From: Octopus vulgaris
Taxonomy: Eukaryota
NCBI GenBank assembly: GCA_951406725.2
Contig: OX597823.1
Location: 34,720,001-34,784,000 of the forward strand
DNA length: 64,000 nt
Reading direction: 5' to 3'
Positions 4,819 through 55,146 of this stretch are shown piece by piece. Position numbers and translations under genes: made by a program. The stretch's first letter is position 1. Each line of letters starts with the position of its first letter. Under the pieces are notes generated by a model that was not told the DNA's origin, ran no database searches, and worked only from the letters and a program-made list of their open reading frames with translations.

Positions 4819-4959
4819 AATCAGTAAGTTGTCATAATAATACTCAGAGATTCAAATACCGGAGCTAGAAACTTCTAGGCATTTTTCATCATGTATAAAA
4901 TAGAAAATTACTGTTTGTAAATATCTCAACGAGAGACATTCAGTAACAGTACTCTAAAG

Positions 4960-5128
4960 TAAAGATTATTTGGCAACATAACGTGGCAGTCTTGGCTAGG
5001 ACGAATGCTACTGCTATTTAACCGCAAGAAACATCGTCAGCCAACTGGAGATGATGTTTCCTCGGGCTAAATAGCAGTAGCATTCGTCCTAACCAGGGCT
5101 ACCACGTTATGTTGGCAAATAATCTTTG
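4960..5128. repeat. ~75-bp-arm fold-back of a dispersed repeat (single arm also at ~28424-28515)
   Basis: AAAGATTATTTGGCAACATAACGTGGCAGTCTTGGCTAGGACGAATGCTACTGCTATTTA... is inverted by ...TAAATAGCAGTAGCATTCGTCCTAACCAGGGCTACCACGTTATGTTGGCAAATAATCTTT. Confidence 0.85.
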
Positions 5129-6093
5129 CTATATATATATTTATAGACACACACACACACACACCTACACACACACGAACAAGGCTGTAGATGATATCCT
5201 TTACCCGAATTTGTATACTTATTTAATCATTTTTACCAAATTTATTTACCCCCAGAATGTTTAAATTTTGAACTCTCATCCGTCATTTCATATAACGATT
5301 GGAACCGTTCGTTTTGGAAGCCCTTACCTTGGATTTTTGTTCTTTATTTGTCACTTCTCCTCTCGGTACCTGAATCCAACGTACATGATGCAGAGTTTTT
5401 ACATATAACTTTTACATGTACTTAATTTATCGACCCTGGAAGAATGAAAGGCAAAATCGACTTCGGCGGAATTTGAACTCAGAACGTAAAGACGTAAAGA
5501 CGTTCTGAGTTCAAATTCAGTTTCTGCCAGTACGCCGCCTTGTACAGAGCATGATATTAAATAATAAATGAACGACTCAAAAACAGGAATAACATAATGA
5601 CTTTAATTACCTTACAGCTGTTTCTGTTTAAGGAAATGCGCGCAAAGAACTGAATACCAGCGCAACATATTACAGCTTCTTGAGAGCCACTGGTTCTGAG
5701 GAAGCCATAAGATAGCACAATGAGTATTTCTGTAATCAAAAACTATTTCGTTTTTGTATTTGGCTTGCAAAATTCTGGATGTGAGCTTGTGTGTTGAAAC
5801 ATTTCTTGTTGCATGTTGGAAGGGCCAGTATGCCAATAATAAACACACGCACCGGTTCTATTTTTCGTCTTTATTACTTGTTAGTCAGTTGGTTAACTAT
5901 TTAACCAATTAACTAATCGATTGTTTGATTAATCGTTCTGTTATTCAATCAGTTAAAGTTCTTTCGTCACCATTTGCGACCTCGTCAATGACATGCTCTC
6001 TCAACACCAGGTCAGTTTTTGGTCTGCCTATCTCTTAGCTTCAAGGTTCTATATATTAATAGTTGTATGGATGTGAGTGAGAGAGAGAGGGAA

Positions 6094-10206: not shown

Positions 10207-10922
10207 GCTGCGATGGGTAATTTTTACATTTTTAATTTCTCGCATGCGCCTTTTTTGTTTTTTATTTTGTCTACTACACAGTATGGTAGGATCTGTTGGG
10301 CACCGTCTGTGAGAAAAACAGCACCATGACGCAATTCACTCTGCCAGAAATTTAGAAACGATATGCTATACTACTTTGCATTCACGCCGGAAGCTCCAAT
10401 ACAAACATTTCACAGTGTTTGGGTGTCAATCTAAAGACAGAGCAATCTGAGGACCTGTACCGAGAGAGATAAAAATCAAACATCCAGTCAATATCGTGGT
10501 GTTTGGAGTGATCACTAGTGATGGAGACGTTATGCCTCTATTCCTCTTACCACACGGCCTCAGACTCAACGCGAAGGCCTACTTCAAGGGGTAGTGCTGC
10601 CCCGGGTCAAGAGGGTGACTGCTGGAAGACTCTATGTCTAGCAACACGACTCCGCCCTATGCCACACAAGCAGGAGAACCCAGTCATGGCTGTCAGATAA
10701 TTTTTGCGACCACATCACTCCTAACATCTGGCCACCTAACTCCCCAAACTGCAACCCCCTTGATTATTATATGTGTGGCGCAGTTGAGCGAGAGACCAAA
10801 CAAAACTCCTTGTAACACACCTAAGATAGACAGAAGGCAAGGATTACGACAGCATTCACCAACCTAAACAAGGAGACCGTCCACAAGAGTTGCAGTAGAC
10901 TCCGAAGTGGTCTGGAGGCCGT
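10202..10922 (+). mobile_element. Decayed, internally deleted Tc1/mariner DD37D (maT-type) transposon, truncated by the gap
   Basis: Translates KHPVNIVVFGVITSDGDVMP...*QHDSALCHTSRRTQSWLSDNFCDHITPNIWPPNSPNCNPLDY, with 37 residues between the last two Asp. A related terminus lies at ~59340-59450 (minus). Confidence 0.85.
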
Positions 10923-11022
10923 NNNNNNNNNNNNNNNNNNNNNNNNNNNNNNNNNNNNNNNNNNNNNNNNNNNNNNNNNNNNNNNNNNNNNNNNNNNNNN
11001 NNNNNNNNNNNNNNNNNNNNNN
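10923..11022. other. Assembly gap (100 N)
   Basis: Run of N. The flanks belong to unrelated elements (DNA transposase on the left, LINE ORF2 on the right). Confidence 1.
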
Positions 11023-12099
11023 GACATGCGCTGAGGTTAAGACATCTGTGGCTCTACCTGGATGGTGAACGGGTGTGGTCTCCGTTAGCAAAACTGATGT
11101 TTCCCAAGTTCACTAGTTTCGGTGGATGGGAAACCTGGCTGAATCGTAGATCGAAACTGGTACATGGTACACGGAGTGTCGCAAGGCTCTCCTGCTATTC
11201 CGTCGCTCGGGCAACGCCTGCGGTGGGGGTTCCACCACATTCTTCTATAGAGGGTTGGTAGAGGCGGAATGTGAAGACACCTTGGGGAAACCCTGGGTCT
11301 CGACGATAATCAGCTGGCCAGTCTGTTCCGACGTACGTTCGAGCCGAAGACACTGGACAACTTCCAGAAGTCTCTGGCATGGCAATGCTACAGAGGAGCT
11401 CTACCTGTTCGGGATAAACTCGCAAGGCACGGTGGCCAAGACAGTCCGATATGTCCAAGATGCGGGCGGGATAGGGAAACCGTCCCGCACGCTATTGTTC
11501 ATTGTTCGGACGTGTCTGAGGTGTGGGTTTATGCCGAACAGCTGTTGTCAAGCACACGAAGAGTACAGCTGTCGACTGAGTCGATTAAAAAAATTGACCC
11601 ACCAGATTTCCTCGCGAAAGAAGGTAAGTTTGTTTTCTCGTTGTGGTAGCAATTGCGAAAGAGGTGATATGGAAGACGAGAATGAAAGGTATACAGTCAG
11701 GCAAGTTCATATCCGGCCCTGGTTTGATGAATTACTTCATCTACCACCTGAAAAGGAAGATAGGGCTGGAGAGAAATGCCTGACTAGGAGAGTGTATGAA
11801 GAACGATGGAAGGATGTAGCACGGAAGTTGAGAATGAAATGACACCACATAAATGTAGATCAAAACGAAACCAAAAGTATCAGTGGTGAGGCGGGGCTCG
11901 TGGGGTCCGAGCTGAACCCGCCCCACTCCACCTGTAGTGTCTTCCGGTCTTTTCCTCATTCGATTTTTTAATTTTTGCAATTTTTGTAATTTTTGAAATT
12001 TTTAAACTCGATTTTTTGTAAAACCCATTCGTGAATCTGACCCCACATCAGGTTGTATTGTCCTCTTATGTTCGCCCCTTGTGGGTAATAATAAAACAC
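11023..12099 (+). mobile_element. 3' end of a Tx1/L1-clade non-LTR retrotransposon (ORF2 C-terminal zf-RVT domain plus 3'UTR)
   Basis: A frame missed by the ORF track reads LAWQCYRGALPVRDKLARHGGQDSPICPRCGRDRETVPHAIVHCSDVSEVW, the zf-RVT CCHC motif of L1/Tx1. The 3'UTR has a GCGGG-GCTCG..CGAGC..CCCGC hairpin and ends in TTGTATTGTCCTCTTATGTTCGCCCCTTGTGGGTAATAATAAAA. Confidence 0.88.
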
Positions 12100-12113: not shown

Positions 12114-12161
12114 CGATTGTATTGTCCCCTCTATGTGGCCCCTAGTGGGTAATAAAGAAAT
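12114..12161 (+). mobile_element. 48-bp, extremely 5'-truncated retrocopy (3' tail only)
   Basis: CGATTGTATTGTCCCCTCTATGTGGCCCCTAGTGGGTAATAAAGAAAT, flanked by CCGATAGACGTTAC (12100-12113) and CCGATAGGACGTTAC (from 12162). Confidence 0.8.
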
Positions 12162-12177
12162 CCGATAGGACGTTACT

Positions 12178-13936
12178 TCTATGCGTGTTGTTATCTGTGA
12201 CTAGACGGTGAAGTTTTTTCTGTGTAAATTGATTTAATATCGCGCGTGGCGTTTGCCTCCACGTGTGGAAACCTTCCGAAGAAGGTGAATTGACCCTCCA
12301 GTCATGGCGACTTACGCGGGGGTCACCGGGAAAAATAACGATTCGGCGATAATCATAAAGGAGGTTTTCTTTGAGAAGGATAAACTCAAAGAATATGAAA
12401 AGCTCTTCAAAAGGGAGGGTGATAGCGTGAAGCTAATCCCCCCGCGAAAGCAAAAGAGGACAAAGAAAGCAAGACAGTGACATACAGAACCCAAGACAAA
12501 AATACGAAGAAACTGGCAAGAGTGGAGATAGCCGAAATTGAAAAATGTCTGGGAGACATAATGGGGAAAATAACCTATGTGAGTAGAGGCAAGAAATTTG
12601 GTACGGTGGAGGTGAGATGTGCAACGGAAGAAATTGCAGCCTCACTGGCTACCACTGTACTAAGAGCCGAAAAATTCACAATGTGGCCCTCATACAAGGG
12701 AAGAAGAGGGGTCCGGGTTAAAATCCCGAATATACCCCCAGAAGTGAAAACAGAATGGCTGGCAACAGCTATTCTAGGAGCAGCAGAAGAGGAAGTGGAG
12801 GTGGAATCTATTAAGGAGTCCAACGCGGTAAACTGGAGAGGATATGGGGTAGAACTGTGTTTGATGGCCACAAAAGAGGATATTGAAAGGTTCCCCTACA
12901 GAATTGAAATTGAAGAGGAAAAAACCCTCAGTGTAATTGTAGAGGGAAGAAAACCAAACTGTTACTTGTGTGGGACAAGGGGGCACATTAAAAAAGAGTG
13001 CCCGTTATACGAATTCGTAGCGGAGTGCGAGCAGGAACTTGAAGAAAAGAAGAATACTGTAAATGAAAAAGAAAACATAGAAAAGGAAACAAAACAACAA
13101 GAGAAAGGAAATAATAAGTCAATGAAGGAAAAAGAAATAAAAGAAAAGAAAGAAATAGAACCAAAACAGAGTCAGGAAAAAAAAAGGAAAAAGAAACAAC
13201 AGGAAAAAAACAAGAGAGAGATCAGAATCAAACGAAAAGAAAAGACGGCACACAAAAGGAAAAAGAAAAGGAACATAAAACACGAGAGAAAGAGAGAACA
13301 GACAAAGAACCAAAAAGACAAGAGAAGGAAGGAGAAAGAAAAGAAGGCAAAAAGAGAGAAAGAGAGAAACAAAGAGAGGAGAACAAGGAAGAAATAAGCC
13401 CGAAAAGAAAATGAAGGAAAACGTAGGACGGAAACAAGATTACTACTACTACAAGTTAATAACCTTCCATTTCTGCCCTGAAATGAAAGACTTGACATGG
13501 AATACGGAGGGACATATATGGGTCGACAGGAATACCGATCAGTGGCAGGAGACTGCTCTAATCCCCGAAGAAAGAGTCGCTGAGTTCCTCAGAGCTGCCG
13601 GAGAGAGTGTAATATTTTACACGAAGGTTCGAATGAGAGAGCGGCCGCCTGAGGGCTCAGTGATTGACTTTAGAGAATTGAAAGCTATTATGGAATATGT
13701 ATAGAATTGTGAGAAGAAAAAAAAAGTGAAAAAAGAAAATTTTGTGAAATATATGTGACGAAAATGTAACCTCTCGATTCCGGGGATCGAGTGGGCATTT
13801 ACATCTCATTGTAAATATTCTTTCATATGTCATTTTTTACTTTTATTTTTTCCTTTTCTTGTCATTCGCTTTCTTATTTTAAGTTCCCCGATTGTATTGT
13901 CCCTCTATGTGGCCCCTAGTGGGTAATAAAGAAATA
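12178..13936 (+). mobile_element. ORF1-only non-autonomous non-LTR element, copy 1 (HAL1-like; ~32 nt 5'-truncated relative to copy 2)
   Basis: 5'UTR, one gag-like ORF, ~230-nt 3'UTR ending in the Tx1-like tail. No endonuclease or RT sequence. Bounded by CCGATAGGA on both sides. Confidence 0.8.
12304..13704 (+). CDS. ORF1 (gag-like nucleic-acid-binding protein with CCHC knuckle), frameshifted in the assembly
   Basis: ATG 12304 MATYAGVTGK..., CYLCGTRGHIKKEC (CX2CX4HX4C), a K/E-rich linker, and a C-terminal ~90-aa domain ending at TAG 13704. Frame breaks at C6 (12438-12443), A9 (13177-13185) and ~13407. Confidence 0.7.
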
Positions 13937-13945
13937 CCGATAGGA

Positions 13946-15740
13946 GGTTTGAGTTCGGTAGGAACACGTGTCGGAAATCTATGCGTGTTGTTATCTGTGA
14001 CTAGACGGTGAAATTTTTTCTGTGTAAATTGATTTGATATCGCGCGAGGCGTTTGCCTCCACGTGTGGAAACCTTCCGAAGAAGGTGAATTGACCCTCTA
14101 GTCATGGCGACTTACGCGGGGGTCACCGGGAAAAATAACGATTCGTCGATAATCATAAAGGAGGTTTTCTTTGAGAAGGATAAACTCAAAGAATATGAAA
14201 AGCTCTTCAAAAGGGAGGGTGATAGCGTGAAGCTAATCCCCCCCCCGCGAAAGCAAAAGAGGATAAAGAAAGCAAGACAGTGACATACAGAACCCAAGAC
14301 AAAAATACGAAGAAACTGGCAAGAGTGGAGATAGCCGAAATTGAAAAATGTCTGGGAGACATAATGGGGAAAATAACCTACGTGAGTAGAGGCAAGAAAT
14401 TTGGTACGGTGGAGGTGAGATGTGCAACGGAAGAAATTGCAGCCTCACTGGCTACCACCGTACTAAGAGCCGAAAAATTCACAATGTGGCCCTCATACAA
14501 GGGAAGAAGAGGGGTCCGGGTTAAAATCCCGAATATACCCCCAGAAGTGAAAACAGAATGGCTGGCAACAGCTATTCTAGGAGCAGCAGAAGAGGAAGTG
14601 GAGGTGGAATCTATTAAGGAGTCCAACGCGGTAAACTGTAGAGGATATGGGGTAGAATTGTGGTTGATGGCCACAAAAGAGGATATTGAAAGGTTCCCCT
14701 ACAGAATTGAAATTGAAGAGGAAAAAACCCTCAGCGTAATTGTAGAGGGAAGAAAACCAAACTGTTACTTGTGTGGGACAAGGGGGCACATTAAAAAAGA
14801 GTGCCCGTTATACGAATTCGTAGCGGAGTGCGAGCAGGAACTTGAAGAAAAGAAGAATACTGTAAATGAGAAAGAAAACATAGAAAAGGAAACAAAACAA
14901 CAAGAGAAAGGAAATAATAAGTCAATGAAGGAAAAAGAAATAAAAGAAAAGAAAGAAATAGAACCAAAACAGAGTCAGGAAAAAAAAAGGAAAAAGAAAC
15001 AATAGGAAAAAAACAAGAGGGGCATCAGAATCAAACGAAAAGAAAAGACGGCACACAAAAGGAAAGGAACATAAAACACGAGAGAAAGAGAGAACAGAGA
15101 AAGAACCAAAAAGACAAGAGAAGGAAGGAGAAAGAAAAGAAGCCAAAAAGATGGAAAGAGAGAAACAAAGAGAGGAGAACAAGGAAGAAATAAGCCCGAA
15201 AAGGAAAATGAAGGAAAACGTAGGACGGAAACAAGATTACTATTACTACAAGTTAGTAACCTTCCATTTCTGCCCTGAAATGAAAGACTTGACATGTAAA
15301 ACGGAGGGACATATATGGGTCAACAGGATGACCGATCGGTGGCAGGAGACTGCTCTAATCCCCGAAGAAAGAGTCGCTGAGTTCCTCAGAGCTGCCGGGG
15401 AGAGTGTAATATTTTACACGAAGGTTCGAATGAGAGAGCGGCTGCCTGAGGGCTCAGTGATAGACTTCAGAGAAGTGGAAACTATGATAGAATACGTATA
15501 GAATTGTGAGAAGAAAAAAAGAAAAAAGAGAAAAAAGAAAATTTTGTGAAATATATGTGACGAAAATGTAACCTCTCGATTCCGGGGATCGAGTGGGCAT
15601 TTACATCTCATTGTAAATATTCTTTCATATGTCATTTTTTACTTTTATTTTTTCCTTTTCTTGTCATTCGCTTTCTTATTTTAAGTTCCCCGATTGTATT
15701 GTCCCATCTATGTTCGCCCCTAGTGGGTAATAAAGAAATA
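13946..15740 (+). mobile_element. ORF1-only non-autonomous non-LTR element, copy 2 (1795 bp)
   Basis: Highly similar but not identical to copy 1. Begins GGTTTGAGTTCGGTAGGAACACGTG after CCGATAGGA (13937-13945) and ends TAATAAAGAAATA followed by CCGATAGGATGTTACT (15741-15756). Confidence 0.8.
14104..15501 (+). CDS. ORF1 copy 2 (CCHC gag-like), continuous if one base is added to each of two homopolymers
   Basis: Same protein as copy 1. The only breaks found are C9 (14238-14246) and A9 (14980-14988). Confidence 0.7.
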
Positions 15741-15987
15741 CCGATAGGATGTTACTTATTCATCGATACTCAAAAACTGAACTTTCACCAACTGAATACT
15801 CGTCATGTAGTGCCTTACCGCTTTCTGCTGGATTTTACCTCGAGAAAGGAACCCTGAGGAAGGAGGGCTGAATTTCGAATACTTCGTACAACAAACGGCT
15901 GCAGTTTAGGAAAAAAAATGTAATCGCCTCTTTCAATTTAGGTTTTCATTTTTCATGTTTTTATTTGTATTCATTGTTATGTTTATA

Positions 15988-16470
15988 TTGAGTTATCCGG
16001 AAAGTTCGTTCCGATTTTTAAAGGAAAGTACATGGTCACTAAATACTCTTCCCAGAATTGGGGTGGTTTCAAGGCAAATAATTCATCAAGGTATCTTTTT
16101 ACGTCATCTAAGGAATTGAAATTTTCACCATTAAGACTATTCTGCAGAGACCTGAATAAGTGGAAATCCGAAGGAGTAATATCTGGTGAATATGGAGGGT
16201 GGGGTAAGTCACCCCAGCCAAGCTGCAGCAATTTTTGTCTGGTTCCCAAAGCATCAAATGCCGATAATGAATTTTTCTCATCTTTTAATTTAAAGGGTTA
16301 CAGAATTAACACAGGTTATTGGAACATAAACCTTCTTCCACGAAAAGATAGATTAAACTGTGCTCCAAATGGAGGTGTAGTCAAATCCTATTTTATGGAC
16401 TCAAACATGTTCTAAAATAAGTCGAAAGATAAGCTACTATAAATCTGCAAGAACTTTCCGGACAACCCAA
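15988..16470 (-). mobile_element. Internally deleted mariner element (483 bp) with both TIRs and TA TSD
   Basis: TIRs TTGAGTTATCCGGAAAGTTC / GAACTTTCCGGACAACCCAA, TA on both sides. Encodes LGWGDLPHPPYSPDITPSDFHLFRSLQN. Confidence 0.9.
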
Positions 16471-16870: not shown

Positions 16871-19432
16871 TCAGGTCATCCCATAAGTTCTGTCTGAATT
16901 TTGGATAAAGAATACAAGTGATCAAATGTTATATTTAATTGAAAGTTAATCATCAATGTACTTTCCCTAATTATCTATGACTTACCTCCATCTATTTACA
17001 AGCTTTTTAATCCCATCAACGTAAAACTCTTTTGGTTTGAAAGCGAAGAACTCTGAAATGTCAGGTTCGACCTCCCCCTGGCTTGCGAAAGTTGTATCCC
17101 CCTACTAATTCTGTAAACTATGAAACAAATGGTATCCTGAAGGAGTAAGGTCGGGAGAATAAGTTGGATGAAGAAATTTTTCCAAACCGACCCCTTCGAT
17201 CTTCTGTGATGTGATCTTTGCAGTGTGGGGTTGCGCATTGTCCTGATGAAACATCACTCGTTTTCGACTCACTAAAGCGGCTCTTTTTTCCTTCAAAGCT
17301 TGGTTCAAACGCTCTAATTGCTGACAGTAGACTTGAGCATTGATTGTTGCATTGGGTGGTAACAATATAAAGTGAATTACGCCTTTGCAATCGCACCAGA
17401 TAGAGAGTAGAACCTTTTTCCCATGAAGTTCCCTTCTCGGTTGTGGTTGAGAATTTTCCCTTTTACCAAGCCACTGTTTACGACGTCTAACATTTCGATA
17501 GAAAATCCATTTTTCATCACAAGTCTATCGAAAAAGGGTGAAATGAGTTCGCGAGAATGGAGAGAAGAGCAGATACCAACTCGGGATTTGCGGTTGCTTT
17601 CGGACAATACATAAGGCACCTATTTTCCAAGTTTAGGAACCTTTCCACGTTGTTGAAGATGACGATGAACTGTTGTATGGTTTGAAGTAAGCTTTATTGT
17701 CAATTCTTCAACTGATAATGACGGATTTTCTTCAAGTAATGCCTCGAGGAGCTTGTCAAACTCAACTGGACATCCTGTTCGATATTCATCTTCAATTTTG
17801 CAGACGATCTCCTGCAAGTTCTTTCATTCGAGCACTTTGCTATAAACTGAGTGTATGTTTCGAGTCACTTCGGCATCAGAATTACCTTTATTGTACTCAT
17901 AAAGAATTATATGTGCCTTAAATGCTCCTTGGATACTTCCATGTTGAAAGGGTTTTAATCAAAGCAATTTTAGGGTGTCCACGAAGTCTGGGTTTATGGA
18001 ATAAAATCATAACATAAACAAATAAATATAAGAAATAATAATTTTCCTTTTTTACTTTTGTTTAAATTAAATTTTAAAATACTTTACTTTTCTAAATTTA
18101 TTTGTTATTTTTTCTACAGATGATCGAATGATGGCTCTGTCTAAAGAAGAAAGAATCCCAGATCGAATGATGAATCTGTCTAAAGAAGAAAGAATCGAGT
18201 TAGTATTATTAAGTGGACGAGTAGGATGGTCTTATCGCAAAATTGCGGAAGAATTTAATCTTCCACACCCTTGTAGGCAACCTATTTATTTTACTGCCGT
18301 CAGGAAATTGATCAAGAAATTTAAAGAAACAGGCAGTGTTTCGGATAAACCCCGTTCCGGTCGACCAAAGACTTCAGATGAAACTAAAGAGGCTGTCGAG
18401 GCTAAAGTTTCTGCTAGCTAGCCCCCAAAAATCACTTCGTCGGACATCTACGGTGTTAGGTGTTCCAAAACCAACCATCCACAAAATGCTGGTTGAAGAA
18501 AAGTTTCATCGATACAACCTACAGATATTGCATCACTTAAATTAAGACGATCCTGATAGACGAATAAATTGGATGAAAATATCAATTTTACGAAAAACTT
18601 TGTGTTGTTCAGTGACAAAGCTACGTTTTATGTAAATGGTGAGGTCAACAGACAGAATCTTCTATACTGGTCTCGAGGTAATCCACATTGGATGGATCTA
18701 TCCAAACAGCAAGACAGCAAAAAGGTGATGGTGTGGTGTGGTTTTTGGAAAGCTCATGTTCTAGGACCCTTCTTCATTGAACATGTAACGGATGAGACTT
18801 ATGCAAATATATTGAGAGACAAATTAATATCTTAAATTGAGCGCCTAGGCGAGGACCTTCCGAATTGGTTTCAGCAGGATGGGGCCCCTACCCATTTTGC
18901 CACAACTGTTAGAGATTGATTTAATGACACGTTTCCTCCTCACTAGATTGGAAGAAGGGGTCATATGGAATGGTCCCTTCGTTCACCAGACCTTTCTCCC
19001 CTTGATTTCTTTTTCTGTGGTATGTTGAAAGAGAAAGTTTACTCAATAAAGATTACAGATTTAAAACACATGAGAGAACGCATTATCAGTCAGTGTGCTT
19101 AAATTGATGGCAATGTAGACTTATTTAATCAAGTTCACCTGAATTTTGCAAGGCGCATCAAGTTATGCATTGAAAATGATGGAAATCACTTTGAAAATAT
19201 TATTTATTATAATTAAATAAAATTGATTTGTTTTAAAAGTATGTGTTAATTCCCATGTATGCAAACTTTGTGGACACCGTCTATTATTTTGTAAAACAAT
19301 ATTGAATTAGTTTAAACGTACACAAATGCATAAAAATAATTTTTAATTGAATTAGACATTTGCAAATACTATTAAATTTCATTCAACTCTAAAAAACAGG
19401 TAAAATTGGACAGAACTGACTGGATGACTTGA
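16871..19432 (-). mobile_element. Decayed mariner transposon hosting a nested DD41D element
   Basis: TIRs TCAGGTCATCCCATAAGTTCTGTC / GACAGAACTGACTGGATGACTTGA. Fragments FHQDNAQPH...HPTYSPDLTPSGYHLFHSLQN and HTH-like LLEENPSLSVEEL...TTVHRHL. Confidence 0.85.
17971..19283 (+). mobile_element. Near-full-length decayed Tc1/mariner DD41D (rosa-type) transposon
   Basis: TIRs GGTGTCCACGAAGTCTG / CAAACTTTGTGGACACC. Encodes KFKETGSVSDKPRSGRP, FSDKATFYVNGEVNRQN and FQQDGAPTH...WSLRSPDLSPLDF (41 codons between the Asp residues, two of them now stops). Confidence 0.88.
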
Positions 19433-30121: not shown

Positions 30122-31228
30122 TCATTTGTAAACATGTATCTGGGTAGAGTCACTAATCAATGACTGAGCTGCATATTTCTTGAACATGCTCCAAAATGTT
30201 GGAAGAATTGGATCAGTATAATAGTGCACCAAATGTGGGAAAGCTTTTCGGAAATGGCTAGTGGCTTCTGGAAGATGATAGTGGGGTACTATACTAAATA
30301 GATGGTGGATCTGGTGTGTGCCGATGTCATGGGTTAATCCATGCACCCAACCATAATCCCTATCAATTGAGGATAATTGCCCTGAAACATAGTTCCATTG
30401 ATCATCTGAATACCAAGGGATGTTGACATCATGGTGGTGTAAGAAAGTAAACACCACCATGTACGTGGAAAACACAAAAAGAGGGATGATATAATGGTGA
30501 ACAAGCATTAGAAACCCTTTCTGGTGGTAAAACATATACAAAATATAAGCCATTATGAAGTCTCCTATAAAAGATAAAGTACATCCCAGGATATGGTTCT
30601 GAAATAGAAAATGGAATAGATTAAAATGATTGACTTGTCGTGGCTTATAACCACGCACCAAGTAGCCAAACCATCCTAAACCAAGACCAAATCCAGGTAA
30701 AAGCTGAGTTGATGTTTTTCGAAATTTTTTCCTGATGGGATAATAGACTTCATCTTTATCAATATTTCCAGTGTTTTTATGATGGTTTTTGTGGGACAGT
30801 TTCCAAGTATAGTAAGGACATAACAGAAAAGAATGTAACAGGGTTCCCATTGTATCGTTTAATAAGGGATGATGGGAGAAAGAACCATGTCCACAGTCGT
30901 GTCCCAGAACAAAAATAGCAGTGAACATGGTCCCTTGTAAGAACCAATAAAGGGGTATATGTACAATTCCTGCCGACACAGGTAAGTTATTCATGGCCCA
31001 CTCACTAATTACGTACAGGACTGTCATACTAACGACATCACGAACAACATAATACATTGATGTAGAAACTTTAGGATTGAAACATCGAGCTGGTATAACT
31101 TGTTTGATTTGCGTGATGGTTGGCAAGTTCTGCGGCACACCAACTTTAAAAAGTTCTTCAACCTCCTGTTCCGAAGTGCCAGATGTTTGCATTGAAGTGG
31201 CTCCATCACAGTCTTCTTCCAAAACCAT
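30122..31228 (-). CDS. Methyl-end (omega-x, Delta12/omega-3 type) fatty acid desaturase; 368 aa from ATG 31228, or 375 aa if the upstream exon supplies MLRHIDT
   Basis: Intact ORF with three His boxes (HDCGH, HKNHH, HQIHH), a FAD2/FAD3-like N-terminal motif PTITQIKQVIPARCF, hydrophobic segments, and no cytochrome b5 domain. ATG lies in ACCATGG just after a polypyrimidine tract plus CAG acceptor (exon starts at 31233). Confidence 0.95.
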   Translation of the reverse strand: MVLEEDCDGATSMQTSGTSEQEVEELFKVGVPQNLPTITQIKQVIPARCFNPKVSTSMYYVVRDVVSMTVLYVISEWAMNNLPVSAGIVHIPLYWFLQGTMFTAIFVLGHDCGHGSFSHHPLLNDTMGTLLHSFLLCPYYTWKLSHKNHHKNTGNIDKDEVYYPIRKKFRKTSTQLLPGFGLGLGWFGYLVRGYKPRQVNHFNLFHFLFQNHILGCTLSFIGDFIMAYILYMFYHQKGFLMLVHHYIIPLFVFSTYMVVFTFLHHHDVNIPWYSDDQWNYVSGQLSSIDRDYGWVHGLTHDIGTHQIHHLFSIVPHYHLPEATSHFRKAFPHLVHYYTDPILPTFWSMFKKYAAQSLISDSTQIHVYK

Positions 31229-31290
31229 GGTGTCTGTCAAAAAATAAAAAAAAAAGACAAAACTGAATAAACATCAAGTGATATAATATT

Positions 31291-38821: not shown

Positions 38822-39730
38822 TATATTATATTATATTAAATTAGAGATAAAACCACTATTAGGCAAATCAAACAATGAAAAACATAAGCCAATACATGAA
38901 ATTAATTAATTTATATTATTTTAAATATATATCAAATGTATTAAAAGTTTAATAAAAGATAAAGAGTAAAACACTATGATCATTTCATGGCTGTACAATT
39001 CATAATAATTCGAGTTATGGTTACAGTCAATCTTCAGGTTAATTAAAATATCTAAAATATAATCAGAAATATTTAAACAATAGGTGCAGGAGTGGCTGTG
39101 TGGTAAGTAGCTTGTTTACCAACCACATGGTTCCGGGTTTAATCCCACTGCATGGCACCTTGGGTAAGTGTCTTCTACTATAGCCTCGGGCCAACCAAAG
39201 CCTTGTGAGTGGATTTGGTAGACGGAAACTGAAAGAAGCCCATCGTATATATGTATATATATATGCGTGTGCGTGTTTGTGTGTTTGTGTTTGTCCCCCT
39301 AACATTGCTTGACAACCGATGCTGGTGTGTTTATGTCCCCGTTACTTAGCGGTTCGGCAAAAGAGACCGATAGAATAAGTACTGGGCTTACACAAAAAGA
39401 ATAAGTCCCGGGGTCGAGTTGCTCGATTAAAGGCGGTGCTCCAGCATGGCTGCAGTCAAATGACTGAAACAAGTAAAAGAGTAAAAGAGTAAAAGAGTAA
39501 TATTTTTAAGATATAAATAATATAATAATTTTACTTATAATAAACTCCATTATCAAACTAGAATTGTACAGCCATGAAATGATCGTAGTGTTTTACTCTT
39601 TATCTTTTATTAAACTTTTAATACATTTGATATATATCTAAAATAATATAAATTAATTAATTTTATGTATTGGCTTATGTTTTTCATTGTTTGATTTGCC
39701 TAATAGTGGTTTTATCTCTAATTTAATATA

Positions 39731-39740
<10 letters not shown>
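38822..39740. repeat. ~180-bp near-perfect inverted repeats (Penelope-type inverted pLTR) around a family A SINE (39082-39498)
   Basis: Arms at ~38822-39001 and ~39561-39740, a decayed hammerhead (CTGAAGA...GAAA, minus 38978-39037), and flanking (TA)n. Confidence 0.8.
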
Positions 39741-39779
<39 letters not shown>

Positions 39780-40213
39780 TATTATATATTATATGTATAT
39801 ATGTATATTATATATATATAATATATATTATATATATATTTATGTATATAAATGATGGACTATATATACTCACACACACACGCACAGACACACACAGACA
39901 CACGAGTGAGTAAACGGTCATCATAATCAACTGTTATTAAGGATAGATATATATTTCATATACATACATATATATACATGTACATACATAAATATACACA
40001 CAGATTTGTCCATGTAAGTGAAATTGAGGTCCTAAAGGCATGCCATTTACGCCTGTACCTTTTCACACATTCTGTCCCCTGCAAATCTCTCCCCAACAAC
40101 TCGTCTTACCAACACCTCCACCACCACCACCACCTGCATTCACGATTCACTACATTCCCCTCTCCTCCCTTCCATCTCCCACTCACTCTGTTCATTCCTC
40201 TCTACTACTTCAC

Positions 40214-40438
40214 TTTTTTTTTGCCAACAGGGGGCTAAACATAGAGGGTACAAACAAGGACAGACAAAGGGATTAAGTTGATTACATAGACCCCAGTGCA
40301 TAACTGGTTCTTATTTAATTGACACTGAAAGGATGAAAGGTAAAGTTGACCTTGGCGGAAATTGAACTCAGAATGTAATGGTAGACGAAATACCACTGAG
40401 AATTTCGCGTGCTAATCTTTCTGCCAGCTTGCCGCTTT
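40214..40438 (-). mobile_element. tRNA-derived SINE (family B) whose 3' tail matches the Tx1-like tail
   Basis: Head GGCAAGCTGGCAGAA...TTCTGAGTTCAATTTCCGCC. Tail CTTGTTTGTACCCTCTATGTTTAGCCCCCTGTTGGCAAAAAAAAAG. Other family B copies at ~5415-5540, ~29180-29380, ~32690-32870, ~33355-33540, ~51055-51270, ~53280-53490 and ~60305-60400. Confidence 0.8.
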
Positions 40439-40831
40439 GACTTCACTTATATACTCCTCCTTCTAGCTTGAGGAGATGCCTGCAGACATCTTCTTCATCA
40501 TCATCTCTCTCTCCCTCCCTCCCTCTCTCTCTCTTTTAATTAGTGCATCCTTTACTGCAAGGTACCCATTTCTGTTCCTCTGTTCATACTTTGACTTCTC
40601 ATCACCAGGAACAAAGCCACACCCCTTCAATACAACTCACCTTCTCAGTTGGGTCTTGCAAGTTACTTGGTGACCTGTAAAGTGGTTGGCATTAGGAAGG
40701 ACATCCAACCATTTGCTCCGAATTTTAGTTTGGTTGACAAATTTACTGTAATATTTCATATTTTATAATCACATAAGATCTATAATCTTGATTCAGACTT
40801 TCCATTATTTTAATTATAATCTATTATTTCT

Positions 40832-41152
40832 AAAAACAAACTTTAAGTTTATTCAAATATGTTTGTGAGATATTTTAACTTCGAAAGGCAAATTCACTGC
40901 AGATTACCATAGAGAGAAAAATTCTCACTTTATGCTAATAGGTGTAAAAACTATTCCCTATTGAAGACAGCATAAAATTTCAGAAATGCCTCTAGGGGTC
41001 CACTAGAGGGAGCCACTGGACTGACAACTGTTTTTGTTTTTTTTTACATTTATTACCATAAAGGGAGAATTTTTCTCCGTAATCTGCAGTCAATATCCCT
41101 TTAGAAGTTAAAAAATGACACAAACATATAGAAACTAACTTAAAGTTTGTTT
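40832..41152. repeat. Degenerate fold-back (~110-bp arms) with a decayed hammerhead at 40956-40998
   Basis: AAACAAACTTTAAGTT...ACTGCAGATTAC is mirrored by GTAATCTGCAGT...AACTTAAAGTTTGTTT. The loop holds CCCTA-TTGAAGA...GAAATGCCTC-TAGGG. Confidence 0.6.
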
Positions 41153-46326: not shown

Positions 46327-46600
46327 TAGCAGTATTGCCCGGCGTTGCGGTTCGTTTAGACCCTTTAGAATTGGAATTTTTGAAAAGTAAAAATTTGGCA
46401 GTATGTAGCTTGTTATTCTCTTTAAGTGAAATACACCGAAAAATGGCGACACAGCAGTCAAAACATCGTAAAAAATAAGGATTTTCATAGAAAAAAAGGC
46501 ATCTTTTTGCTTTTTGATGTAAATAATTTTTGGTGTTAACATGGTCCGATTTGAATTTTTTCTTCTACGGAAGGAAGAGTTAGCCTTCTTCTTTCATACT
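46326..46600 (-). mobile_element. Non-autonomous Helitron 3' end
   Basis: Minus strand reads CAACGCCGGGCAATACTGCTAG, the same terminal motif as 23885-23906. Confidence 0.6.
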
Positions 46601-46649
46601 CTCATATATATATATATGTATATATGTCTATATATATATATATATATAT

Positions 46650-48016
46650 ATCCTTGCTCCCGCCCACGTTGCCGCACTTGCCCTTACCTCTCCAACACCA
46701 CCCGCCTCACTAGCACCCACCATCGACCCTATCCCATCATCCACTCCTTCACCTGCACCTCCAGCAATATTATCTATTGCATCTCTTGCTCTCTCTGCAA
46801 TTCCTTGTATATCGGACAAACGGGACGCCGCTTGGCTGACCGGTTCGCGGAACACCTTCGTGACATCCACCTTGCGAACAACACACCGGTCTCACGCCAT
46901 TTCCGCTCCACCGGTCACTCCTTGCAACACCTATCTGTGTTCGGTTTGTCCTTACACAGAGGCCATCCGGATTCCCGTTTGCACCGTGAACAGGAATTAA
47001 TCTTCTCTCTTCGCTCTTATACGCCATTTGGTCTCAACTCTCCCCCCTCCTCATCTAACCCCCTCTCCCCCTCCTCACCTATCCTTTCTCCCCCGACCCC
47101 TACTTCTACAGTCCTTCATCCTTTCACCCCTACTCCCCTTCCCTTCTTCCCTCTTTCTCCCTCCCTCTTCCCCTTCCCTCTGCTCCCTCACTCCCTCTCT
47201 CCCTCTTTCCTCCTTCATTCCCCTCCTCCCCTTCCTTCTCCCCCATCCTCTCCTCTTCCCCCTTCTCCTCCCCCTCTTCTTCCCCTCGCCTTCTCCCCCC
47301 TCTTCTCCCCCTCCCCCTCTTCTCCTCACTACACCACATGACTTTACACATCACATCACATATGATGTGCCATACTAATACACACACCAACTAATACATA
47401 CTAATACGTACTAATACATACCAGTACATACTAATACTTACACCAACCCTATACATACACACGTCCAGACCCCGCATACGCACTTATACTCTCTCACACA
47501 CACACACACACACCTATACATACCAATACGTACTAATACATACTAATACATACTAATACATACACCAACCCCATACATACGCACGTCCAGACCAATCTTA
47601 CGCACTAATACTCTCTCATACACACACACACACACACACACACCCTTATACATACTAATACATACACCAACCCTATACATACACACATCCAGACCCCTCC
47701 CACGCACTTTTAGCTGGTCCCTCAACCCTTTTATCAACCCTATTATCTCCCCTTATTTCGCTCTCGCGTCTCATGTTTGATCTTTGACCTCTGGCCGAAA
47801 TCAGATCGCCATGTTGATTCGTTAGCTACTGCACGCATTTTTTTCTCTCCTTCTTTCTGTGTTTTTCTCTCTCTGTGTATCTTTCTGTTGAAGAGCGTAG
47901 GCTCGAAACGTTAAAGACTTGTTTTATTTATATTTCCTGAGCGCCATACTAATACAATTGTTCGTTTGTTTTCCACCTGCCTTCGTCTTTTGTTTATTTT
48001 CATAAAGCTTCCCGTT
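46650..48016 (+). mobile_element. 5'-truncated Penelope-like element (Neptune-type GIY-YIG endonuclease plus pLTR) in (TA)n
   Basis: PCSRPRCRTCPY...FTCTSSNIIYCISCSLCNSLYIGQTGRRLADRFAEH...VSRHF...HREQELIFSLRSYTPFGLN. The pLTR has a hammerhead-like motif at 47881-47916. A second pLTR copy lies at ~51510-51690 (minus). Confidence 0.9.
47881..47916 (+). ncRNA. Minimal hammerhead-like motif with non-canonical core (CUGUUGA plus an extra A)
   Basis: CTTT-CTGTTGA-A-GAGC-GTAG-GCTC-GAA-ACGT-T-AAAG. A decayed copy lies on minus at ~51592-51628. Confidence 0.55.
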
Positions 48017-49384: not shown

Positions 49385-49772
49385 ATTCTTTAATTTGTTT
49401 CAGTCAGTTGACTGTGGCCATGCTGGAGCACCATCTTTAGTTGAACAAATCAACCCCAGGGCTTAATCTTTATAAGCCAAGTACTTATTCTATTGGTCTC
49501 TTTTTGCTGAACAGCTAAGTTACTGGGATGTAAACACACCAACATAGGTTGTCAAGCAATGGTGGTGGGGGGAACAAACACAGACACACAAACATACATA
49601 CACACACATATGTATGACGGGCTTCTTTCAGTTTCTGTCTACCAAATCCACTCACAAGGCTTTGGCTAGCCTGAGGCTATAGTAGAAGACACTTGCCCAA
49701 GGTGCCACGCAGTGGGACTGAACCTGGAACCATGTGGTTGATAAGCAAGCTACTTACCACACAGCCACACCT
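49385..49772 (-). mobile_element. Full-length family A tRNA-derived SINE
   Basis: Reverse complement of the 39082-39498 copy. Partial copies at ~7499-7610, ~34760-34925, ~42800-42950 and ~53760-53925. Confidence 0.85.
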
Positions 49773-49781
49773 GTGTATATA

Positions 49782-54456: not shown

Positions 54457-54930
54457 ATAGCCAAGTAGTTAGGGTGTTGCATACATAATCAAGTGATTGT
54501 GATTTCAATTCTTAGACTGGATAGTGTGTTGTGTTCTTAAGCAATATACTTCATGTCACATTGCTCTGACGTATGGTACACAGTGCACCTGTTCAGATAA
54601 CATCGATTTGATGGAGGGACAGGTGAGCTAATGTGCAGCATGGCCATTTGATCACTATAAACAAATCATTGGTGCAGGTTGTGCAACAAAAACTAAACAC
54701 TCATGTAGCATCTTCAATGGCAGAGTCCATCATCATATAATATATATATATATATATATATAAAGGTAAGCAGAGTTAGTGGTTGTAGTAACCGACTAAG
54801 AGATAATAGTATTCTGTATTTACTACCTGTATCATTTACCTGTGCTATCCTTGGGCATGGGTATGATGCAAGCACGCTATGCTCATAGGGTAGAGGTAAT
54901 AACTGAATAAACAAAAGTTTATCAGAAATC

Positions 54931-55120
54931 AAATTTAAATAAGCAGAAAATGGAAAAACTTTTGATCAACAAACAAATTAAACCACAATGATTGATTATT
55001 TTTTAATACAAAACATGACATGTCATGTTATGTCATGTTTTGTATTAAAAAATAATCAATCCTTGTGGTTCAATTTGTTTGTTGATCAAAAGTTTTTCCA
55101 CTTTCTGCTTATTTAAATTT
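54931..55120. repeat. Near-perfect ~90-bp-stem hairpin
   Basis: AAATTTAAATAAGCAGAAAATGGAAAAACTTTTGATCAACAAACAAATT...TACAAAACATGACAT is directly followed by its reverse complement. Confidence 0.9.
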
Positions 55121-55146
55121 TATATCTATCTATCTATCTATCTATC

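Follow-up and report, generated by a model that had tools for sequence, protein, structure and literature searches.

Which reverse transcriptase copies the SINE found on the minus strand of this part of the Octopus vulgaris genome? It is well known that a SINE and its partner LINE can be matched through a shared 3' tail. The element in question is short, non-coding, interspersed and present in high copy number, and SINEs as a whole occupy 11.6% of the O. vulgaris genome (available part of PMC13282606). An earlier note on this DNA had proposed that the SINE, a Tx1-like LINE and a group of ORF1-only elements end in the same tail and are all driven by one enzyme. The evidence gathered here makes it rather likely that a high-copy SINE subfamily, which carries the tail of about 45 nt found on L1-group LINE and ORF1-only elements, is copied by the ORF2p of that (probably Tx1-type) lineage. 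The window, that is, the whole stretch of 64,000 nucleotides that was analysed, has a GC content of 37%, is rich in microsatellites, includes one gap of 100 N (10923–11022), and contains no Rfam family at gathering scores.

The SINE copy is about 224 bp long (40216–40439, minus strand) and is made up of a Pol III-type head, a body and the LINE-like tail, as delimited by duplication, contig depth and an alignment of eight copies. Its ends, 40439 and 40216, are set by an exact 9-bp duplication, AAGTGAAGT, present on the minus strand at 40440–40448 (5' copy) and at 40207–40215 (3' copy); among random pairs drawn from the window, 93 of 20,000 share at least nine letters. This is a target-site duplication of the kind left by target-primed reverse transcription (TPRT), and the insertion site, T|AAG, loosely resembles the TT|AAAA of human L1 (available part of PMC6007223). 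The tail as first quoted (40257–40213, minus, by sequence match) was right in position and match, except that its last AAG belongs to the duplication, i.e., to target DNA. The tail proper, whose homology with the tails of the LINE and of the ORF1-only elements is seen in alignment, contigs and profile, occupies 40216–40257 (minus). In the head, pattern matching located an A-box-like motif (40416–40426, minus) and a B-box-like motif (40359–40367, minus), each in all seven copies tested and 51–66 nt apart; the patterns are those which we take to describe these boxes, and one mismatch was tolerated in the A box. ARAGORN detected no tRNA, and a search of two decayed SINE heads against Rfam, at E values up to 10, brought up chance-level matches and no tRNA. 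The name tRNA-SINE given earlier thus agrees with the box motifs and finds no counterpart in the Rfam search of these two heads; it is the A and B boxes alone that suggest a putative tRNA origin. Head and body are common to eight copies in the window, this one included. The tail is present in one of the eight, and the other seven have a different C-rich ending or are cut short. Even in the copy that has the tail, the terminal motif is largely replaced by an A-run.

On the LINE side, all tails belong to a single plus-strand array of decayed copies, between 11.0 and 15.8 kb. The array opens with the 3' end of a frameshifted L1-group ORF2 with a zf-RVT domain (11023–11842; Pfam E 1e-9), whose pieces lie in three frames and share 67% identity with a 1,096-aa ORF2 of Argonauta over 120 aa; everything upstream of this fragment is removed by the 100-N gap. 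The 3' UTR of the LINE is closed by the first tail, T0 (12053–12098), behind which stands a tail-only stub, T1 (12117–12160), the LINE-side tail that was first quoted. Two ORF1-only elements complete the array. The first (12178–13936) comprises a frameshifted ORF1, a zinc knuckle, a 3' UTR and the tail T2 (13892–13936), and the second (13978–15740), 97.7% identical to it, ends in T3 (15694–15740); the four tails were placed by alignment. Because CCGA precedes T1 as well as T2 and T3, T1 is likely an extremely 5'-truncated ORF1-only copy. Pfam recognizes zf-CCHC (the zinc knuckle) in the ORF1-only elements, and the look-alikes of their protein in the Atlas belong to CCHC and ZCCHC3-type RNA-binding clusters. 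ZCCHC3 was also considered as a marker of Tx1 ORF1, a use for which neither the literature search nor the available part of PMC9004415 gave support. Fourteen ORF2 queries had no match in the window outside 11000–11900, so that the ORF1-only elements, as the earlier note had held, bear the same tail as the LINE and lack ORF2. They fit the definition of HAL1-like elements, which lack ORF2 and combine an ORF1 with a LINE-type 3' end. Both copies shift frame near the start of ORF1 (12426–12445 and 14226–14248), although the C-runs of the two differ in length. The near-coincidence of the frameshifts may mean that the pair arose by local duplication or that both descend from one defective source.

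Several other features were noticed in the window. Mariner/Tc1-like transposase remnants flank the LINE array at 10400–10922, 15983–16297 (minus) and 17105–17524 (minus); the last matches Transposase_1 with an E of 4.6e-26 and the other two were recognized by eye. DNA transposons are known as targets of some Tx1 elements. An uninterrupted frame of 383 aa at 30122–31273 (minus) matches Pfam FA_desaturase (E 1.4e-24) and DUF3474, and represents an intron-free desaturase within an animal genome. A frame of 272 aa at 46523–47341 (plus), possibly a Penelope-like fragment, resembles GIY-YIG too weakly to pass the cut-off (E 0.0012). A second, unrelated SINE-like family of 340–385 bp is found at 737–1073, 39087–39470 and 49395–49773, with additional shorter copies; when scored with the tail profile, the ends of its copies in the window gave no match to the LINE tail. 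Palindromic or inverted-repeat, MITE-like elements are located at 4955–5133, 40834–41152, 54924–55127 and 38822–39740.

The LINE belongs to the L1 group, as judged from its protein. The assignment made earlier is confirmed by the zf-RVT domain and by full-length relatives (61–67% identity over the C-terminal part) that combine endonuclease, RT and zf-RVT; the window LINE keeps only the C-terminal part, and this domain order is read from the relatives. Compared with solved structures, the Argonauta relative has its best match in human L1 ORF2p (E 1.9e-53), with R2 at E 3.6e-24. Argonauta hians, Octopus sinensis and one bacterial metagenome-assembled record supply the named matches of the LINE protein, the last of these being a close relative of ORF2 filed under a Herbaspirillum MAG that is likely host DNA in a bacterial bin. 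Scans of metagenome, viral and prokaryote contigs with tail patterns and with ORF2 relatives yielded no further copies with flanks, a blank that carries no weight because these collections are not assemblies of animals. No relative among the listed matches bears a Tx1 or an L1 label. Within the L1 group, the LINE is probably of the Tx1 type, for two reasons: L1-Tx1 is the only L1-group type listed among the recently active LINEs of O. vulgaris (available part of PMC13282606), and within the L1 group it is Tx1 that has site-specific members, since in the accessible text of PMC6007223 only Tx1 and R1 are given as APE-type LINEs with such members. The available supplement of PMC13282606 reports 80 L1-Tx1 families in this species, covering 56 Mb. 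The partner lineage of the SINE is likely the L1 group, and probably its Tx1 type.

Common tails are used to mark SINE partners (PMC3747384, section 1.4, in the part available), and the strength of the likeness must be examined in the first place. The SINE copy agrees with T0–T3 in 34–35 of 45–46 columns in pairwise alignment. Local scores of the SINE tail against the four are 30–33, with shuffle means of 13–14, and 2, 0, 1 and 0 shuffles per 10,000 reach the real score for T0 to T3, respectively. A profile of the four tails, run with nhmmer over the window, recovers the SINE tail with an E of 8.6e-5; the runner-up, in the palindromic element at 40834–41152 (E 3.7), was rejected as chance. None of 25,284 control stretches of 47 nt from the window scores at least 30 against the tails, and the 3' ends of nine other SINEs score 8–18 against the profile. 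Could such short 3' ends, C-rich and then A-rich, be alike by chance or convergence? A blind search of the whole window offers this explanation some room, since its best match is only moderately rare: 200 shuffled tails gave a mean best score of 25 and a maximum of 33, which 1 of them reached, and 3 scored at least 31. Nevertheless, the four-tail profile and the control stretches speak against it, both matches stand at the 3' ends of elements, and the family majority, described below, shifts towards the LINE-side tails, which largely refutes chance. We regard this explanation as very improbable. The similarity between SINE and LINE ends sharply at the upstream limit of the tail, beyond which the SINE scores just 16–18 against the 3' UTRs of the LINE and the ORF1-only elements.

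The family level was approached through the contigs of public runs. Those of four runs (out of 24, with four organism labels) were aligned to 40170–40475 at 80% likeness, and 36,252–78,873 contigs per run matched the SINE. The depth of contigs, which is not to be read as copy number, exceeds 1e5 within 40214–40433 and is at most 1,425 below 40214 and at most 650 above 40444. The SINE subfamily with the LINE-like tail is very abundant. At position 40249, the base of the LINE-side tails makes up 89–93% of the depth in each of the four runs, which removes one of the mismatches of the window copy. Loose ends at 40227 were found in 469, 767, 345 and 268 contigs of the four runs, and their 16 nearest letters, GGGTAGTAAAGAAATA in the sense of the SINE, are identical in all four; they agree in 15 of 16 positions with GGGTAATAAAGAAATA of T2 and T3. 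Pieces of 110–140 nt span the tail into the body, so that the tail is joined to the SINE in other copies too. When the family letters are substituted, a hand count gives about 85% identity with T1 (40/47) and T3 (41/48), against 76% before, and about 79% with T0, the LINE's own tail (38/48), which is below the ORF1-only tails; this family tail is a composite of contig letters and not a true consensus, and the loose-end evidence is drawn from 24 of 1,320 rows. Some variants move away from the LINE-side tails, with 37–43% differing at 40242 and 15–18% at 40247. Taken together, the tails of the SINE, the LINE and the ORF1-only elements are homologous, and more clearly so at the family level; on this point the alignment, the shuffles, the profile and the contigs all uphold the earlier note. 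Loose ends at 40302 reveal a different ending in all four runs. The SINE family has evidently swapped tails, because one of the eight window copies has the LINE-like tail while the rest end otherwise; tail swapping is described for other SINE superfamilies (available part of PMC4824008). Beyond the SINE tail, the plurality letters in two of the four runs are GGTATTT, a sequence of the SINE head (window 40394–40388, minus), and one contig links the end of the tail to head-like sequence just behind the A box (window 40425–40407, minus). Such tail-to-head junctions hint at head-to-tail multimers of the SINE or at insertion into its own copies.

The sequences behind the tails bear on the choice of target. 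CCGATAG(G)A follows all four LINE-side tails (in one array, whose 5' junction is lost in the gap). As CCGATAGGA, it is exact behind three of them and lacks one base behind the fourth, and behind T0, T1 and T3 it extends to about 15 nt. The spacer behind T1 (12162–12176, plus, by sequence match) is CCGATAGGACGTTAC, with variants on the plus strand behind T0 (about 12100), T2 (13937, limited to 9 nt) and T3 (15741). It has the look of target DNA duplicated by successive insertions, and may instead be part of the elements; likewise, CCGATAGGAYGTTAC may be target or element sequence. No Rfam match was found in the 270 nt behind the array. The SINE copy is indeed not followed by CCGATAGGA, as had been noted from the sequence at its 3' end, and none of the four loose-end consensuses at 40227 continues as CCGATAG (24 of 1,320 rows). 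In the earlier note this had been tentatively attributed to relaxed targeting by the same enzyme. The missing CCGATAGGA agrees with that, but a sister family with the same tail explains it as well or better, because the endonuclease mainly determines the insertion site (available part of PMC6007223). Weak target preference under a Tx1 partner would also be possible; in some SINEU families, it amounts to 13–23% (PMC4494074, in the part available).

With these elements, the following route may be drawn. The SINE subfamily would have gained its LINE-like tail by template switching, which is likely because a different ending is found in most copies that share its head and body. Pol III would transcribe the SINE from its A and B boxes, the ORF2p of the L1-group lineage would bind the tail of the transcript, and then nick the DNA and reverse-transcribe from the nick in a target-primed manner, leaving the 9-bp duplication. 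The driver would more likely be a sister family whose preference for a site is weak than a decayed element of the array, because the array members all precede CCGATAG(G)A, which is absent behind the SINE.

Two further explanations accept the homology of the tails and dispute what it means. According to the first, the SINE is driven by a LINE from a different clade, and the tail of the L1-group elements is a secondary acquisition, taken over by a 3' swap from either the SINE or its LINE. The lack of the array spacer behind the SINE would agree with this, O. vulgaris also shows recent activity of RTE, Dong-R4 and CR1 (Table 1 of PMC13282606, as far as available), and 45 nt cannot reveal the direction of a transfer. 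On the contrary, the LINE and the ORF1-only elements share a LINE-type version of the tail, marked by a diagnostic base of its own (TTGTATTG against TTGTTTG), and a weak match persists in their 3' UTRs directly upstream of the tail (score 25), two features which suggest that the tail is native to the L1-group lineage; moreover, no other sequence in the window matches it. A driver of another clade thus appears unlikely. According to the second, the tail is a relic inherited from an L1-group element, and mobilization is relaxed and needs only an A-rich 3' end. Tail folding is relevant here. The five short tails fold no better than shuffles (z from -0.75 to +0.46), and the folding of eight tail stretches yielded no significant structure, so that the conserved stem-loop considered in the earlier note has no significant counterpart in the folds of these tails. 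A 4-bp GCCC/GGGU hairpin recurs in the predictions for T0–T2 and T3 folds otherwise, five sequences being few for covariation; the window SINE copy breaks one of its pairs, which the GGG of the family would restore in the predicted fold. This result fits a relic, as do the terminal motif of the window copy, mostly lost to the A-run, and the poly(A) ends of the SINEU families mobilized by Tx1 (available part of PMC4494074). Against a relic stand the lack of a poly(A) tract on the LINE-side tails and the family loose ends, and the conservation of 45 nt across three types of elements whose upstream sequences are unrelated or barely related. We consider this explanation improbable, and copying by the ORF2p of the L1-group lineage remains the preferred reading.

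The proposal that one reverse transcriptase drives LINE, ORF1-only elements and SINE goes further. The common tail would agree with it, and the lack of CCGATAG behind the SINE speaks against it. Only tentatively can it be suggested that a Tx1-type lineage with stringent tail recognition drives itself, the ORF1-only elements and, in addition, a major SINE subfamily whose insertions evade the target specificity of the lineage. If true, it would provide an animal example of stringent recognition in the L1 group and would name an engine behind the SINE expansion of octopus. The pairing further raises the question of whether a single lineage can separate its recognition of RNA from its choice of target.

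As regards known systems, the arrangement of HeT-A in head-to-tail arrays is familiar. HAL1, HeT-A and Ag-Sponge resemble the octopus elements in that they possess ORF1 but no ORF2 and look like an autonomous LINE at the 3' end (available part of PMC5786205); both octopus copies are frameshifted, unlike this comparison set. Octopus tRNA-derived retroposons were reportedly described by Ohshima and Okada in 1994. OR1 and OR2, named as CORE-SINEs in the accessible parts of PMC4824008 and PMC4758252, are abundant tRNA-type SINEs of octopus like the window SINE, a likeness by description and not by consensus sequence. No partner is named for the octopus SINEs in the available portions of PMC4758252, PMC4824008, PMC5804259, PMC8967140, PMC10294476, PMC3531059, PMC7245038 and PMC9004415, and the literature search, outside which lay most subscription papers, Repbase, Dfam and SINEBase, found no octopus SINE sharing its tail with an L1/Tx1 LINE. 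Repbase, Dfam, SINEBase, MetaSINE or the 1994 paper may already contain this SINE or its pairing. The common tail thus points to a partner LINE for octopus SINEs that is unnamed in the literature found.

The closest animal case is that of the crocodilian SINEU families and Tx1-Mar, in which an animal SINE is likewise assigned to a Tx1 LINE (PMC4494074, in the part available, as for the points that follow). Tandem SINEU insertions are parted by duplicated target, which in SINEU-3 resembles the array spacer, and target preference ranges from 13% to 90% among families. SINEU elements have snRNA heads and poly(A) ends and are linked to their LINE by a shared target, whereas the octopus SINE is linked by its tail and does not share the target; no LINE with the 3' end of SINEU-1 was found. 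More similar in the nature of the link are ZmSINE2 and ZmSINE3 with LINE1-1_ZM in maize and SINEX-3_CR with L1-1_CR in Chlamydomonas (available part of PMC3747384), where a tRNA-type SINE shares the 3' end of an L1-clade LINE over 50–80 nt, which is read as stringent tail recognition. The contrast drawn earlier between stringent pairs and the relaxed L1 of mammals is right and, given these L1-clade pairs, incomplete. In the accessible text of the same source, the 58 SINE/LINE pairs tabulated by Ohshima include three SINEs with L1 tails, from maize and Chlamydomonas, and neither an L1/Tx1 partner for an animal SINE nor a mollusc. Relative to the literature found, which, as far as available, lists plants and algae only, the pairing of an animal SINE with an L1-group tail is new. 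In maize, the tails fold into a hairpin that shows compensatory changes; for octopus, the prediction is a 4-bp hairpin that does not go beyond shuffles. Maize and Chlamydomonas are a plant and a green alga, whereas the octopus case concerns an animal, a LINE that is likely of the Tx1 type, and ORF1-only elements that share the tail. With an animal L1/Tx1 pair, one could test directly whether L1 was stringent early on and became relaxed later in mammals and plants, as has been proposed.
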